From Candidatus Sulfomarinibacteraceae bacterium (GTDB taxonomy: Bacteria; Acidobacteriota; Thermoanaerobaculia; Thermoanaerobaculales; Sulfomarinibacteraceae): a DNA stretch of 28,528 bases. The first letter of the stretch is position 1, and the number at the start of each line of letters is the position of its first letter. The stretch lies in assembly GCA_963796455.1 (NCBI GenBank), contig CAWCLO010000009.1, forward strand, positions 1 through 28,528, written 5' to 3'. Below, one piece after another: positions 18,001 to 24,000 of this stretch. A program made the position numbers.

Positions 18001-21000
18001 CGACGGCAATCCCAGGCATCCCGGGAACGTGCAGACCGGAGACCTCGAGGCCGCCTCCACGGATTGAACCCTCGGAGGCGATGGACGGCATCTCGAAGCC
18101 CATCTGCGGTCCCGAGTAGAGCATCGGGTTGCCGGTGTCGGTACGGTCGCCCGAGATAGCCCATGCATAGCTCCCCATCTTGATCCTGGCACCGATCTCG
18201 TCCATCTGCCGGTGGTAGGTTTCGATTCGATCGCGGATATCTTTTGCCGCGTTTCCGATGTCCGGGAAGGAACCGGCCTTGACATCCGGTAGCCGGGTTT
18301 TGACTCGCGCTTTGGCACCGGCAGGGGCCGGAATCATCGTCTGAGCCGAGGGGTCGTTCAGCCAGCGCAGGTCTGAGAACATGGCGAGATACTCAGCCGG
18401 GTAGACCGCTGCCAAGGTTTGGACAAGCGCGTAGTTGTCGAGCTGCCCGGTATTGAGCGCCTCCGGATCGAAGCCTCTCAAGAACAGCGCCGTATAGGCG
18501 ATGGCGTCGTTGACCGTCCAGGGTGTGGGGAGCCAATTCATGCTCAGTTGGTCGACAACGACGAACTGGAAGCTGGCGATCCAGTATTCATAGGGCATGA
18601 TGTAGAAATTGGCGTACATCTCCCCGACGCGCTGGTTGATGCCGTCCACATATCCCTGAACGGCGGCTTGGCCGTCCTCGGATAGGCCGTTGAATTGCTC
18701 TGTCAGCTCGTCGTCCGAGTAGCCGATGGTGCGAAGAAAGACATCGGTTCCAAGTAGGGATTCGCCGAGAACCTCGGAGAGTTTGCCCCGTGCCTGACGG
18801 CGATAGAGCTCCAGCTGGAACATCCGATCGGACGCAACTGCATAGCCCATCGCCTTGTAGACGTCGTAGACGGTGTCTCCACCCTCGATGAACCAGACGC
18901 CCTGGGCGTCACGGGTGGTTGTTACCGGAGTAGATTCTTGCGCAGTGGCCTGACCTGAGCCCGCGATAGCCAGAGTCAGCATCAGAATGGAAATTTTGAA
19001 AATAGACACTTTCATACTCTCCTCCTTTCGGATCAGACACTTCAAACCACAGTTCCCAACCTTGAGGTTCGTGGTCGCAACCTCTCTGTTCTTACGATGC
19101 TGCGCACGACTATAACCGTGCTGATCTTCAGTGGCAACGGGAGGAGAGGTGAAGTTTTGAGTTTTGAGTTGTGAGTTTTGAGTTTTTTCTCACTCCGGTG
19201 AGACGAACCCAAAACTGCATGTGAGCCCGCCGGGCTCACGAATCAGTGGGCTCAAGAAAAGCCGCAGGAGTGGGGGGAGGGGGCTGCCGGCGCCGAGGCT
19301 TCCGACGAAGAAGACGAGGATGCAAAGCTCGAGAGCTTTCGTTCGACCTTGTCGCTCTTGCAGTGGGGGCAGCAGACGCCTTCGAGTGTGGCTCCGACGC
19401 GCTGTAGTTTTGAAAAGCCTTCGTTGCAGTCGGCGCACTGGTATTCGTAAATGGGCATCGTTCGCTCCGTTGGTTCACCGCGCTGGGTGAGCGCGGCCGC
19501 GATCAGACCTTGCCGGCCTCGATCTCTTCCATCTGGATCCGTCCGTCTTTGATCGCCTGGTGCTCACGATCGACGCGAAGCTCCAATGAATCGCAGACAT
19601 TGCGGCAAATCGTAAAAACGCCTTCGTCGATGATTCGGTAGTAGACATTGAGACCGGAACGGCGACAATCCACCAGCCCTGCACGCTTCAGCACCGAGAG
19701 ATGCTTGGAGACGTTCGCCTGGCTTCCTCCAACGACCTCGAGGATGTCTGAGACGCACCTTTCGCCGTTATGCAGGCAGTGCAGGATTTTCAGCCGGGTC
19801 GGGTCGGCCATCGCTTTGAGAACGTCTGCGATCCTGTTCAGGAGTTCGTCTGAAGCGATCATGGTGCACCCCTTTATAGGCCCATCGGTCATTGGTAATA
19901 TATTCCTGTTTTCAAGCGCAGTCAAACTCATCGCAGAAAAGAACTTGTTATTTTTTTTGCCACCGGGGAGTCAACCGCAAAATGGTAGGCTACCGTTGGC
20001 CCATCGGGAGGTGAACATGCCGACAATTTTCGAACACATCGTCAACGGTGAAATCCCGTGCCACAAGGTCTGGGAGGACGAGAACCACCTTGCCTTTCTC
20101 GATATCAACCCTCGGGTGGAAGGGCATACCCTGGTCATACCCAAACACCCCTGGTCCGAGGTCTTTGCCATGGAGGGCGACCAGTACATGGCCCTATGGG
20201 CCGCCGCGAGGAAGGTGGCAACGATTCTTAAGGAACGAACCGGGTGCGAACGAGTCGTCGTGGTTGTTCTGGGCTACGAAGTGAATCACGTCCACATTCA
20301 CCTGATGCCAACCAATCAACTCGAAGATTTCCCCTTCCCGCCGGTGGATCAGGAAGCCCTGGCGAAGATCGAGGAGACGGCTCGAATTCTTGGGGCTTGA
20401 CCTGCAGCGCCTGACGGCGCGAGAATACCCCCTGGGCCGGAGTGGCGGAATGGTAGACGCAGAGGACTCAAAATCCTCCGCTCGCAAGGGTGTGGGGGTT
20501 CGAATCCCCCCTCCGGCACCAGGCTTCGTTCTCGGCCTCGACGAGAACGAAGCCTGTCACGGCGTAGCTCCGAGCGAAGCCGGACTCCTATTCCACCTGG
20601 TCCACACCGAGAACTACGCCCTGGCAAGCCAGCCTTCGTTCCTGACCAAAGAGAGAACGAAGCCTGTCACGGCGTAGCTCCGAGCGAAGCCGGACTCCTA
20701 TTCCACCTGGTCCACACCGAGAACTACGCCCTGGCAAGCCAGCCTTCGTTCCTGACCAAAGAGAGAACGAAGCCTGTCACGGCGTAGCTCCGAGCGAAGC
20801 CGGACTCCAATTCCACCTGGTCCACACCGAGAACTACGCCCTGGCAAGCCAGCCTTCGTTCCTGACCAAAGAGAGAACGAAGCCTGTCACGGCGTAGCTC
20901 CGAGCGAAGCCGGACTCCTATTCCACCTGGTCCACACCGAGAACTACGCCCTGGCAAGCCAGCCTTCGTTCCTGACCAAAGAGAGAACGAAGCCTGTCAC

Positions 21001-24000
21001 GGCGTAGCTCCGAGCGAAGCCGGACACCTATTCCACCTGGTCCACACCGAGAACTACGCCCTGGCAAGCCAGCCTTCCTACGAAGCTGTGTCTCGAACGA
21101 AGCCGGACCCCCGGGCTGCGTACTTTACGACGGTTGACTATTGGCTCGACCGGACATAAATTCTTACTCAGAGATCAATACATACATATTAGTCGCCGGC
21201 GAACTCTGAAGCGGCGAAACTGATTTCGGTGGAGTCTCTCCTCCGCCGCGAACTCGACCGGTTTTTTCATCGGTCCGCCTCGACGTGGTCGGTGGCGTTG
21301 CCCGGTGTTCCAATCGCTGCAGGGAGAACGGATGGTCAAATGCCGCCAGTGCCGAAACGTTTTTCGAGTTATCGGAGATGCGCTCAATCTCCGTCTCGAC
21401 ACAGGTGTGTTGCTGGAGATGGCTGCGCGCTCTTTGGCCGACGAATTCAAGCTCAAAGGCTGCCATTTTCGACTGCTGAGCCGCGATCAACGCACCCTCG
21501 ATCACGTGGCGTCACACGGCCTCAGCGAGCGGTTTCTTGCCAAGGGTCCGGTTGACGCCGAAAAGAGTGTCGCAGAGGCTCTCGATGGCCAGGTCGTCGT
21601 GGTTCCCGACTGTTCGTGTGACGATCGCGTTCAGTATCCCGATGCCTTTGTTGCCGAGGGCATCGTGTCGATGCTGACGATCCCGCTCGAGGCCCGCGGA
21701 CAGGTGATCGGTGTCATGCGTCTCTTCACGGACGTCGAACGCGATTTCAAAGAAGAAGAAATCGAGTTTTTCAAGGTCGCCTCGTTGTTCTGCAGCAGCG
21801 CGATCATCGACTCCATGTTTCACCGGATTCTCGGCCACGTGACCGAAACGATTCAGTCGTCGCTCGAGCTCTCGGTAGTGCTCGACAATATCGTTCGGGT
21901 CGTCTGCGAAGACCTGCGCGCCAAAGGATGCGCGATCTCCCTGATCGATAGGGAAAAGTCCGCTCTCGAAACCAGGGCTTCAAATGGACTCGACGAGGGT
22001 TTTGTTGAGCGGCTCTCCGACGTCGTTTCTCAGGACACCCGCGACGAAGTCATCGCAGGCTCGACGGTGGTGATTCTCGACGGCCGTCGCGACCACCGGA
22101 TCCTCCACCCGGAGGTGGTGGCGGACGCGAAGATTTCATCGATATTGTTGGTGCCGCTGATGACCCGCAGCCAGATCATAGGTGTTCTCAGCCTCTTCAC
22201 CCACAAGCCCTACCTGTTCTCCGCAGACGAAAAGCAACTCCTGGTTTCGATCGGCGAGCATTGTGCGTTGGCAATCGACAATGCCCTGATGTTTGATGCC
22301 TTGAAGCAACGATACGAAACCCTCGTTGATGACTTCCAACTCTGGTTCCAGCATTCTGGGGGCATGCCGCAGAGAGGCCCCAGCGGTCGGGTCGGAGCCG
22401 ATCCCGAGCAAGAGGAAGTTGACCTCCCACCCCTCTTGTGACACCTTCGATATTGCGAGCGGATCATCTCGAGTGGAGGCTCCTTTGGATCACGTGGCGC
22501 TGGTTGAAGCTCTCTCCGATCCAACCTTTTATCCGCACCCGGTCGAAGAGGTGCACTATCTCCAGACCCATATCTCGTCGGTTTTTCTGACCGGCGACAC
22601 AGTCTACAAACTCAAGAAGCCGGTTAATTTCGGTTTTCTCGACTTCTCCACCATCGAGCTTCGTAAGCTCTATTGCCGAGCCGAGGTGGAACTCAACAGC
22701 CGTCTCGCTCCCGCGCTCTATCTGCGGGCGGCCCCGATCACCCTTGACGGCGATCACCTGGCTCTGGAGGGAGAAGGTGAAATCGTCGACTGGGTCGTGG
22801 TGATGCGCCAGCTCGATGAAGGCCTGCTCGGCAGTCAGGTGCAGGCCAGGGGCGAGCTCTCCGAGGCCCACATGGACGCCCTCGTGGATGTCCTGGTGCC
22901 CTTCTACCGAGACGCGGCGACAGGTGAGGGGGTCGATCAGTACGGCACCGTCGAGGCCGTCAAGTTCAACACCGACGAGAATTTCAGCCAGACCAAGGCC
23001 TACGCCGGAAAGCTCCTGTCAACCGAACGCTACAAGCACATTCGTCGTTGGACGAACTCTTTCTACGAAGAAAATGGCGAGCTTTTTGCCCGCCGAATCA
23101 ACGAAGGACGGATCCGCGAGTGCCACGGCGATCTCCACCTTCGGAACATCTTTCTCGACGATCCGCCGGTCATCTTCGACTGCATCGAGTTCAACGAACG
23201 GCTTCGCTGCGGCGACATCGCGGTGGATCTGGCCTTCATGGCGATGGACCTCGATTACGTCGGACAACCCGAACTCGGGAGCCGTTTCATCAACCGATAC
23301 GTCGAGGCTTCGGGCGACACCGAACTTCTCGATCTGCTCGATTTCTACAAGTGTTATCGCGCTTATGTACGCGGCAAGATCGCCTGTTTCACCTCCTCCG
23401 ATCCCGGTCTCGACGGCCCCGCAAAACGTGTTCAGCGCAACCTCGCTCGACGCTACTTCGGGCAGGCCTATCGTTATGCGGGTGGCGCCGAACAGCCGTC
23501 TTTAGTGGTCCTCTACGGACTGATGGGATCCGGGAAAACCAACGTCGCCAGGTATTTGCGCGAACAGTACGGTTGGCATCTTCTGTCGACGGATGCGATT
23601 CGCAAACAAATATCCGGGGTTGGGGAGAACACCCGTGTCTACGTGCCCTACAACGAAGGGCTGTACTCGCCGGATATGAACAAGAAGACCTACGCCGAGG
23701 TCTGCCGACGGGCAGAAAACCTGTTGTTGGGTGGCTTCCCGGTTGTCATCGACGGCGCCTTCAAATACCAGGACGAGCGGCTGCCGGTGATCGAGGCGGC
23801 CCGCAGAACCGAGGCTCGACTGGTCTTTCTCGAGACCATCTGTGGTCCGGACGAACAACGCCGGCGTCTCGAGAGACGGCAGGAACACGACACCCGTTCC
23901 GACGGGCGGGTCGAGCTCATGGAACATCAGAGGGCGGATTTCGAAGGGGCGAACCCCGAGCATCAGGAGCTTTTCCACACCGTCTCGACCGAAGGCCCCA

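Follow-up and report, generated by a model that had tools for sequence, protein, structure and literature searches.

What placed five near-identical 110-nt repeats directly behind the CCA end of a tRNA gene? A survey of this Candidatus Sulfomarinibacteraceae genome (G000) had described the repeats, which lie in the 28,528-nt stretch of contig CAWCLO010000009.1 that we refer to as the window, as a structured element of stable-RNA genes, and had proposed that they were either a processed trailer RNA or an attachment site of integrative elements. A structured element is indeed fused to the CCA ends of tRNA and tmRNA genes, but neither of the two readings of it stands. The repeats most likely belong to a mobile system of single-stranded DNA (ssDNA) hairpins, and they are very probably the gene-less, amplified relic of a small selfish element.

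Anatomy of the array behind tRNA-Leu(CAA)

All features of the locus lie on the plus strand. The tRNA-Leu(CAA) gene that anchors the element, with its CCA encoded, spans positions 20436 to 20521 according to ARAGORN and Rfam. It is preceded by an HIT-family gene (20017 to 20400; Pfam HIT, E = 4e-20), which adjoins tRNA-Leu(CAA) in 14 relatives and fixes the orthologous locus upstream, and by a promoter-like site (20397 to 20426) that scores 9/12 in a consensus scan, which is no proof of function. The fixed flank downstream, established by comparing the loci of relatives, is a GAF-domain gene (21347 to 22441; Pfam GAF_2, E = 4e-28). A promoter-like site of this gene was placed by the consensus scan at 21134 to 21162, and a similar sequence follows module-free trailers in relatives.

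Between these flanks, TRF delimits a tandem array at 20543 to 21077, with a period of 110 nt, 4.9 copies, and 99% matches, bearing out the five head-to-tail copies that the survey had placed directly after the CCA. The five units differ only at two single positions and in a degenerate end (21071 to 21110), and this near-identity marks a recent amplification. At the degenerate end, where intact elements run on into a GIY-YIG nuclease gene, a genome search for nuclease matches found no remnant of such a gene. The survey's concern that the assembler may have mis-sized the array applies to the copy number alone. Unit junctions recur in independent short-read contigs from runs X2 and X4, where matches of 75 nt and 95 nt are free of differences and one of 140 nt has 3. 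The tandem order is therefore no artifact of assembly; none of the contigs, which come from four DNA runs, spans the whole array, and thus the count of five is an assembly figure.

Each unit comprises several paired elements. Hairpin 1, of 13 bp (20522 to 20554, from folding and the module alignment), begins at the base right after the CCA. It is followed by the 32-nt box hairpin, whose stem contains a GNA/GAA internal loop (20553 to 20584; further copies at 20663, 20773, 20883, and 20993) and which also occurs elsewhere as a free insert. The unit closes with a second copy of the arm, X', and the tail (20609 to 20630; further tails at 20724, 20834, 20944, and 21054). Arm X, the 5' arm of hairpin 1, has two possible partners, the 3' arm of that hairpin and the arm preceding the tail. 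On the bottom strand, a second, inverted box-type hairpin is made up of arm X and the tail, and its end is the complement of the tRNA CCA.

Pairing and loop type

This fold raises the possibility that the module acts as RNA, whether as a structured trailer or as a switch that blocks 3' exonucleases, terminates transcription, or regulates translation of the nuclease gene; the array would then give rise to several small RNAs, in the manner of the tyrT-linked repeats of E. coli. The module lies on the tRNA strand, and unit 1 folds well as RNA (z = -5.3 against 200 shuffles). Covariation, which is also part of the case for a DNA element, was seen in both of the mutually exclusive pairings of arm X. 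The base preceding the hairpin core pairs as T-A in 34 and as G-C in 26 of 64 modules, and arm X matches the tail arm at 6.43 of 8 positions, versus 3.78 ± 0.18 after shuffling (51 modules). Internal loops of the GUA/GAA kind are a known RNA motif. The opening bases of hairpin 1 in this genus have often drifted toward U/A with perfect compensation, and the hairpin stays paired; this drift could reflect selection on the tRNA precursor. An origin of hairpin 1 as an inverted copy of the native trailer of the host found no support at tRNA genes, as its inner arm keeps the element sequence; it may apply to two copies in which the hairpin starts inside a terminator T-run.

Against an RNA role, the loops of the module are DNA-type GNA triloops and not RNA tetraloops. 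Of 84 tips of each kind, GNA triloops close 30 in hairpin 1 and 21 in the box, compared with one complementary loop in each set and GNRA loops in none and one, respectively. According to the available text of PMC13037366, GCGNAGC-type hairpins are far stabler as DNA than as RNA. The box tip in the array of G000 itself is CCG and not GNA. Box and tail are conserved across modules, but they are not invariant as the survey had stated, the third base of the left GNA being T in 55, A in 22, C in 4, and G in 3 of 84. Counts of G-T versus A-C pairs gave no strand signal in the X:tail and box stems, and the X:tail stem did not show the predicted excess of bottom-strand G-T pairs (10 versus 7). A fixed-length test for a GNA/GNA zipper with a triloop in hairpin 1 found none, though the arrangement is visible by eye in some rows. 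The array also lacks a terminator-like site: no intrinsic terminator (a GC hairpin followed by a T run) occurs between 19900 and 21400.

Patchy distribution at orthologous RNA genes

Elsewhere in G000, the copies that the survey had listed are present behind tRNA-Ala(CGC) (three), tRNA-Lys(UUU), tRNA-Glu(UUC), and tRNA-Arg(ACG) (one each), and behind the tmRNA gene, where we count four boxes and three tails. The copy assigned to the 5S end, by contrast, starts about 40 nt beyond it, behind a terminator-like hairpin, and not at the RNA end. Overall, a box lies within 110 nt of 6 of 56 ARAGORN calls in this genome, several of the 56 being spurious "tRNA-Asp" repeats. As the survey had reported, the module matches no Rfam family: with Rfam 15 at E ≤ 10, the tRNA alone exceeded the gathering score in the array region, and six other module loci gave only tRNA and tmRNA matches at relaxed E-values.

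Among relatives sharing the upstream HIT gene, the module is found directly behind tRNA-Leu(CAA) in 0 of 14. At orthologous genes judged by eye, it follows tRNA-Glu in 5 of 17, tRNA-Arg in 3 of 22, and tRNA-Lys in 7 of 16. Two tRNA-Ala sites offer direct pairs of states, and at both of them relatives carry the nuclease gene. Behind tRNA-Ala(GGC), G000 has a plain terminator and G070 has a module and the gene, with the same gene downstream; behind tRNA-Ala(CGC), G000 has its three modules and no gene, and G063 and G070 have a module plus the gene, with the same downstream sequence. Neither a defined right end nor a target duplication was seen behind the nuclease gene at these sites. This patchiness, the DNA-type loops, and the insertion of the box into unrelated repeats all speak against a processed trailer RNA, and copies lying after terminator T-runs or within unrelated repeats cannot be tRNA trailers. 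An RNA function is thus improbable as the main explanation; a secondary RNA role of the module is possible.

Within the class, the restriction to one family claimed by the survey nearly holds, with modules in 12 of 28 family genomes and single chance-like matches elsewhere in a set of 200 genomes, but the module is present in many other phyla. Our genome-wide scan yielded 85 distinct modules from many phyla, 67 of which abut a tRNA or tmRNA end or a duplicated tRNA end. The figure of 85 is a lower count: 119 candidates were sorted into 85 real modules, 33 others, and 1 duplicate left out, and a tRNA end or fragment adjoins 10 of the 33.

Alternatively, the modules could be attachment sites or terminator replacements of integrase-driven islands, and the array the scar of repeated integration. 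Modules do follow duplicated tRNA 3' ends in 16 of 85 cases, and in G000 a module pair after such ends brackets an 11.7-kb carotenoid cluster, with other modules separating gene blocks on contig C6. Other inserts that shifted a module already in place downstream account for the displaced tRNA ends. The repeat unit contains no tRNA sequence, and thus no duplicated tRNA 3' end as in integrase attachment sites. The absence of an integrase beside the copies, noted in the survey, was confirmed in 36 ORFs of the module regions; the three tyrosine recombinase matches lie elsewhere, in a genome-wide search that covered the tyrosine type and not serine recombinases. We therefore consider this explanation very improbable, and the attachment-site reading of the survey does not fit.

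A small GIY-YIG nuclease gene accompanies the module

What the earlier reading missed, besides the wide distribution, is a partner gene. Intact elements carry, on the same strand as the tRNA, a gene for a stand-alone, Slx1-like GIY-YIG nuclease of 82 aa (PF01541; 79 to 83 aa in relatives and other phyla). It lies downstream of 21 of the 54 modules with at least 600 nt of downstream sequence and is missing from the other 33. Conversely, of the 59 nuclease loci with at least 500 nt upstream, 44 have a same-strand tRNA or tmRNA gene within 500 nt upstream (median, 161) and 47 have module motifs; as the search seeds came via the tail motif, module-linked relatives are favored in these counts. The control was a 96-aa group with TGTCAT-type flanks, which we took as Ssn-like: 0 of its 78 loci have a tRNA or tmRNA gene and 0 have a module. 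TGTCAT-type repeats occur at 66 of these 78 loci versus 0 of the 59 small-clade loci. Repeats of the small clade are upstream in 47 and downstream in 7 of 59 cases, and those of the Ssn-like group in 66 and 65 of 78.

Of 80 nuclease genes, 78 are intact and retain the GIY-YIG columns Tyr, Gly, Arg, His/Asn, and Glu. The predicted structure is a single domain (pLDDT, 86.6). Slx1 and the bacterial UPF0213 (YhbQ-like) proteins are the best matches in sequence and fold (1zg2, E = 8e-10; Slx1 7cq2/7cq3, TM score of 0.73 to 0.76), with Slx1 the best structural match. Unlike the nuclease clade, these are repair enzymes or uncharacterized, and the flanks of two YhbQ-like genes of this family lack such hairpins. 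No NCBIfam family was returned for the nucleases. Pairs of sister nucleases with good support follow different RNA genes: Ala and tmRNA in one genome (100/100), Val and Arg (98/89), and Lys and Ala (100/84). G000 itself lacks the gene and any remnant above chance, its single PF01541 match lying within a 668-aa frame.

The box hairpin inserts into GNA mini-hairpin loops

The 30- to 36-nt box hairpin also occurs as a scarless insert at CGN^AG. In G000, AG follows 13 of 24 boxes, and CG-N precedes all 13 of these, versus G at that place in 1 of the other 11; the prefix was outside the search pattern, and the counts represent about 7 independent events. One filled insertion site has 41 empty twins. 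In G025, sampled regardless of flanks, 17 of 29 boxes lie at GN^A. Of 20 targets that lie outside the box family, 12 regain a stem of at least 4 bp once the insert is removed (1.68 ± 1.17 after shuffling; maximum, 7). The box hairpin thus inserts into GNA mini-hairpin loops both of its own family and of unrelated repeats, and 29 of 77 family genomes bear such inserts. This CGN^AG insertion rule is new here; in titles and abstract openings, most subscription papers being outside the search, we found no account of a hairpin anchored at a tRNA and accompanied by a small GIY-YIG gene, nor of insertion into GNA loops.

Scarless insertion into ssDNA hairpins is HUH-like chemistry. The hairpins might therefore be REP/BIME-like DNA moved in trans by another enzyme, either an HUH/Y1 transposase or an Ssn-type nuclease, with the 82-aa GIY-YIG gene a homing-type passenger that uses the module merely as its leader. 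Y1 genes are present in 58 of 77 family genomes, including G000, and 9 of 216 TGTCAT-type heads in G000 bear the insert. Inserts occur in 12 of 17 genomes with the small clade versus 16 of 59 without it, and in 9 of 14 with an Ssn-like gene versus 19 of 62 without one (kin are not independent), so co-occurrence does not single out the small clade. G000 has 13 inserts and neither small GIY-YIG type was found in it, in an assembly that is 90.5% complete. What makes movement in trans unlikely is that the module lies upstream of 0 of 30 Y1 loci of family genomes and 0 of 78 Ssn-like loci, versus 47 of 59 small-clade loci. The module does resemble the GTAG- and CGTC-tagged REP, BIME, and REPIN families served by RAYT (Di Nocera et al. 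2013, PMC3733652) in its short palindromes, in their arrangement as inverted doublets, in tandem reiteration that includes flanking DNA, and in inserting into other palindromes. Unlike RAYT-linked REPs, it has no terminal GTAG or CGTC tag, the GTAG letters being inside the stem and variable (T/A/C/G). Its partner is a GIY-YIG and not a Y1 protein, and "GIY" occurs 0 times in the available text of that source.

A probable hairpin-nuclease element

Taken as a whole, the array is probably best explained as the relic of a selfish hairpin-nuclease element; that the 82-aa nuclease itself moves the hairpins has about an even chance. The complete element runs from a tRNA or tmRNA CCA end through a doublet of inverted DNA hairpins into the Slx1-like gene on the same strand. 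In G000, the gene would have been lost and the arm multiplied into a head-to-tail array, for which slippage or unequal recombination involving the two arm X' copies is the simplest route. The hairpins may fold wherever DNA is single stranded, such as the non-template strand of highly transcribed RNA genes, the lagging strand, or incoming DNA. The nuclease would bind them and nick beside them, by analogy with SsnA at its own hairpin, and repair of the nick, by ligation or template switching, would carry the hairpin, and at times the arm and gene, to a new site. Neutrality at such sites and transcription from the tRNA promoter may explain why gene-bearing copies persist behind tRNA and tmRNA genes. 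Since a GIY-YIG nuclease forms no covalent DNA intermediate, scarless insertion is harder to explain than with an HUH enzyme; moreover, the CCA junction is no GN^AG junction, so two movement routes are needed.

More speculatively, the 82-aa nuclease might be the sole enzyme of a transposase-free class of mobile elements that recognizes ssDNA GNA mini-hairpins, inserts a 30- to 36-nt hairpin scarlessly at CGN^AG, moves arm and gene between tRNA and tmRNA CCA ends across many phyla, builds BIME-like arrays, and perhaps helps to capture cargo behind tRNA genes. It would then be among the smallest site-specific ssDNA nucleases known. The spread of short palindromes is understood solely for families with an HUH transposase. 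Here, sites in both the filled and the empty state, a target rule of five letters, and exact element ends open mobilization of a hairpin by a bare GIY-YIG domain to a direct oligonucleotide assay. The element also accounts for an unannotated structure that is common after tRNA and tmRNA genes in many uncultured bacteria and that RNA searches would class as trailer RNA.

Two further known systems come close. Ssn proteins, the traits of which include membership of clade cd10448 and cutting of ssDNA, but not of double-stranded DNA or RNA, beside the hairpin, are site-specific nucleases with NTS/SRM hairpin repeats, whose mobile-element origin has been raised and whose mobility is still a hypothesis in the available text (Chenal et al. 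2025, PMC11893778). As here, a small single-domain GIY-YIG gene lies beside short, oriented DNA hairpins that are also dispersed and clustered. The module's nuclease nevertheless appears to belong to a different group, shorter at its C terminus and 17 to 39% (mean, 27%) identical to the Ssn-like group, SsnA itself being outside the comparison. Its repeats lie mainly 5' of the gene, it has filled and empty sites with a defined target, and it is anchored at tRNA and tmRNA CCA ends ("tRNA" occurs 0 times in the main text of PMC11893778). The published SRM pattern matches 0 of 84 modules and nothing in the array, which is a weak test, as the pattern finds 33 sites genome-wide versus 216 TGTCAT-type heads. 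The second system is SegB, a free-standing GIY-YIG homing endonuclease of T-even phages (PMC13096335). SegB is a double-stranded DNA cutter that acts inside tRNA genes, and the available text describes no hairpin arm for it, whereas the small clade is a bare catalytic domain without a separate DNA-binding domain, and neither it nor the module had a match in viral contigs, phages, or plasmids. Like the module's nuclease, SegB is encoded beside tRNA genes of many types, and its cutting drives tandem amplification of the neighborhood (PMC13096335).

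The array behind tRNA-Leu

The CCA end of the tRNA-Leu(CAA) gene lies at position 20521, and a hairpin of 13 bp begins at the base directly after it. A 110-nt unit is then repeated 4.9 times, up to 21077, with 99% matches, as the survey's finding of tandem modules directly behind the CCA had described. The other copies that it named in this genome are also present, with one correction: the copy assigned to the 5S end exists near the 5S rRNA, yet it does not sit at the RNA end but about 40 nt beyond it, behind a terminator-like hairpin. The lack of an Rfam family holds as well, the tRNA alone attaining an Rfam gathering score at the array. 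As for the worry that the assembler had mis-sized the copies, the tandem arrangement is real because unit junctions are present in contigs of two independent DNA runs; the five-copy figure is that of the assembly. The observation is thus confirmed, while its interpretation, a conserved trailer element of stable-RNA genes that is either a processed RNA or an integrative attachment site, is supported in part. According to our analysis, the array is probably the arm, now without its gene and amplified, of a tRNA-anchored GIY-YIG hairpin element that is widespread. The window also contains three short arrays of heptamers, each with about five copies (7275-7308, 13710-13747, and 19153-19186).

Module architecture and pairing

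In each module, hairpin 1, formed by arm X and the complementary X', is followed by a box hairpin with a GNA/GAA internal loop in its stem. Next come a variable spacer, X' once more, and a tail, which corresponds to a box-type 5' arm in reverse complement. When the bottom strand is read, X and the tail make a second, inverted box-type hairpin ending in the complement of the tRNA's CCA; therefore, the module is an inverted hairpin doublet. At some intact loci, the two X'-led segments occur in swapped order.

Pairing is maintained among the modules compared, although their sequence varies. Among the matches listed, the base preceding the hairpin core forms a T-A pair in 34 and a G-C pair in 26 of 64 distinct modules, and the pairing between arm X and the tail arm covers 6.43 of 8 positions (51 modules), against 3.78 +/- 0.18 after shuffling (maximum of 4.47 in 5000 shuffles). 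GNA triloops close hairpin 1 in 30 and the box in 21 of 84 listed matches; the complement of GNA is found once at each tip, and GNRA at none and one, respectively. GNA-type loops are described as exceptionally stable in DNA and far less so in RNA (PMC13037366). The tips thus point to module hairpins that would fold in top-strand single-stranded DNA. The box tip of the tRNA-Leu array itself is CCG; thus, the DNA-loop argument rests on the module family.

Distribution of the module

A scan for the exact 17-nt tail returned at least 117 loci, many of them chance matches, and 36 of the matches listed have a tRNA or tmRNA gene within 400 nt upstream. At least 119 loci carry the hairpin-plus-box pattern, which did not include the CCA, and 85 distinct loci among the matches listed pass the pairing rule. 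CCA precedes 82 of these 85 modules. An ARAGORN gene end adjoins 51 of them (21 gene types) and a tRNA 3' fragment another 16; a gene lies 3-500 nt upstream of 5 more, and the last 13 have neither gene nor fragment. Record titles of the matches listed include Verrucomicrobiota, Planctomycetota, Lentisphaerae, Desulfobacterales, Ignavibacteriales, Cloacimonadota, and Alphaproteobacteria. Desulfosarcina variabilis (L057) is one carrier that is in culture. Inside the class Thermoanaerobaculia, the box is almost restricted to Sulfomarinibacteraceae; therefore, the module is patchily distributed.

It is patchy at orthologous RNA genes as well. In relatives sharing the upstream gene, the module lies directly behind tRNA-Leu(CAA) in 0 of 14, and one carries it behind a duplicated 3' end. 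Read by eye, modules occur at 5 of 17 tRNA-Glu, 3 of 22 tRNA-Arg, and 7 of 16 tRNA-Lys loci. Five orthologous tRNA-Leu(CAA) genes (L235, L239, L244, L250, and L255) have no encoded CCA, and the module is absent from all five.

A GIY-YIG nuclease accompanies the module

Three tail loci run directly into GIY-YIG genes of 79-83 aa. The corresponding 82-aa clade is large (943 representatives at E<=1e-10, possibly including other clades); its catalytic columns are kept, 78 of the best 80 copies are intact, and the predicted fold resembles that of Slx1. In a reverse search from the nuclease, we kept the best 80 loci; the counts cover the 59 that have 500 nt or more of upstream sequence. A same-strand tRNA or tmRNA gene lies within 500 nt upstream in 44 of the 59, and module motifs occur upstream in 47 and downstream in 7, an association that may be inflated by search seeds derived from the tail motif. 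As controls, the separate Ssn-like group of 96 aa has an RNA gene in 0/78 loci and a module in 0/78, with TGTCAT-type repeats on both sides instead, and Y1 transposase loci have a module in 0/30.

The nuclease occurs in 17 of 76 family genomes at E<1e-9; in the genome studied here, a search for its gene found none. Orthologous sites differ in content: tRNA-Ala(GGC) is followed by a plain terminator here versus module and gene in the relative G070, with the same downstream gene, and tRNA-Ala(CGC) by three modules here versus module and gene in G063 and G070, with the same downstream sequence. The nuclease tree that we built covers non-duplicate loci whose RNA gene is no more than 500 nt away (57 sequences, 82 columns, many forks open). 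Supported sister nucleases are located behind different RNA genes; therefore, the gene switches site within host lineages. tmRNA or tRNA-Ala precedes 42 of the 57.

Precise insertion of the box hairpin

Free boxes in this genome are located within other repeats. The search pattern excluded the flanks, and AG follows 13 of the 24 full-ended boxes; all 13 have CG-N in front (N is A in 7, C in 5, and G in 1) and amount to about seven independent events, five being copies of one composite repeat and three lying in the tmRNA array. Only 1 of the 11 remaining boxes has G at the corresponding position. One filled site has 41 empty twins, and boxes fill 9 of 216 TGTCAT-type heads. At other loci, G stands two bases before the box in 15 of 17 AG-followed cases. 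The filled form is present in 29 of 77 family genomes and the reversed pattern in none. G025, a relative with two intact nuclease genes, has 77 filled-form matches; in its first 30 loci, sampled irrespective of their flanks, 17 of 29 boxes lie at GN^A and are mostly nested within further boxes, whereas the remainder are in simple repeats or in tandem.

When the insert is removed, 16 of 31 sites regain a hairpin tip whose stem is 4 bp or longer (2.7 when shuffled), as do 12 of 20 targets outside the box family (1.7 when shuffled, maximum of 7), the closing C-G being fixed by the pattern and retained by the shuffle. The insertion point is between N and A of the C-GNA-G loop, and nothing is duplicated. 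This is direct evidence that the box hairpin is mobile at the DNA level, with a structure-like target.

The 216 TGTCAT-type (SRM/CGTC-like) heads are spread genome-wide (e.g., C4:52300 and C1:368660), and the search for an Ssn-like gene in this genome found none despite them; the published SRM pattern has only 33 sites here. One composite with an inserted box has itself spread and is present at five places. Two boxes (C1:72340-72420 and C10:140400-140420 [L524]) are preceded by a perfect hairpin whose 5' arm starts inside a terminator T run and whose 3' arm repeats that run in mirror form as A's, which suggests templated fold-back copying during insertion.

Possible mechanism and related systems

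The nuclease may bind module hairpins in single-stranded DNA and nick beside them, in the manner of SsnA. Repair would then join or copy the hairpin into the nicked GNA loop or, less often, carry the gene together with its arm to a different CCA end. Even at sites away from tRNA genes, the outer hairpin of the element ends in the complement of CCA, which provides a short stretch of matching bases at any tRNA end. Gene-bearing copies may persist at tRNA ends because these would be neutral sites that are transcribed. Once the gene is lost, the two copies of X' would permit slippage or unequal crossing-over, yielding the arrays at tRNA-Leu, tRNA-Ala, and tmRNA.

That the nuclease is itself the mover is about as likely as not. 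Scarless joining is not expected of GIY-YIG chemistry, this genome has inserts without any small GIY-YIG found, and a second route of movement would be required for the CCA junction. Inserts occur in 12/17 genomes with the nuclease clade and 16/59 without it, and in 9/14 with an Ssn-like gene and 19/62 without, so that co-occurrence is much alike for both. It is conceivable, but in our view somewhat improbable, that the nuclease alone drives the element, which would then represent a class of mobile element without a transposase.

In its way of working, the element resembles both Ssn-SRM and REP-RAYT, but it fits neither in the features compared. Unlike Ssn-SRM, the module has no SRM match (a weak test) and the repeats flank the nuclease on one side; unlike REP-RAYT, it has no terminal tag and its partner is not Y1. 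The tyrT-linked repeats of E. coli, the RNA E-loop, and HUH chemistry are further points of comparison. The cut made by SsnA lies a few bases upstream of the enzyme's own hairpin, and double-stranded DNA and RNA are left alone (PMC11893778). With SegB, as described in PMC13096335, the element has in common the GIY-YIG fold, tRNA neighbors, and tandem amplification, and nothing more. The literature searched, which took in few subscription papers and none of the Ssn supplements, held no description of a tRNA-anchored GIY-YIG hairpin element.

Other structures at tRNA ends

An 11.7-kb carotenoid cluster (C10:1250-12980, L266) lies between tRNA-Lys(UUU) plus module and a duplicated tRNA-Lys 3' end plus module; a third tRNA-Lys end with a module is at C3:369300. 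The cluster encodes lycopene cyclase, two amine-oxidase-fold desaturases, phytoene synthase, polyprenyl synthetase, Rieske/DUF5914, and an ABC transporter, with no integrase among the ORFs scanned. At C6:1-20000 (L265), the contig opens with a truncated tRNA. Behind it lie gene blocks, between which there are duplicated tRNA 3' ends plus short-form module (7420 and 12100) and lone tails (3887, 16068, and 19675); the ORFs scanned include one DDE transposase piece and no integrase.

A second gene-less unit of about 110-150 nt, unrelated to the module, lies behind tRNA genes of Sulfomarinibacteraceae: tRNA-Leu (L239, L237, L248, and L249) and tRNA-Arg and tRNA-Lys (L405, L410-L422, L428, L430, and L435-L437). 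Several of its loci show about 20 nt of duplicated tRNA 3' end and tandem arrays, and it can displace an existing module downstream (L213 and L233). A third trailer type, directly behind tRNA genes, has long perfect hairpins (11-20 bp or more), often with a GCAATTC-like arm at the start and without a T run (L229-L232, L235, L244, L247, L250, L255, L390-L395, L397, L401, and L403, and tRNA-Phe and tRNA-Met on C10 of this genome). ARAGORN also calls several 90-95-nt "tRNA-Asp" genes in this genome, without CCA and with near-identical downstream sequence (C1:256404, C1:372006, C4:346277, C7:143691, C10:210759, C10:275636, and C10:353452), which look like copies of a dispersed repeat.
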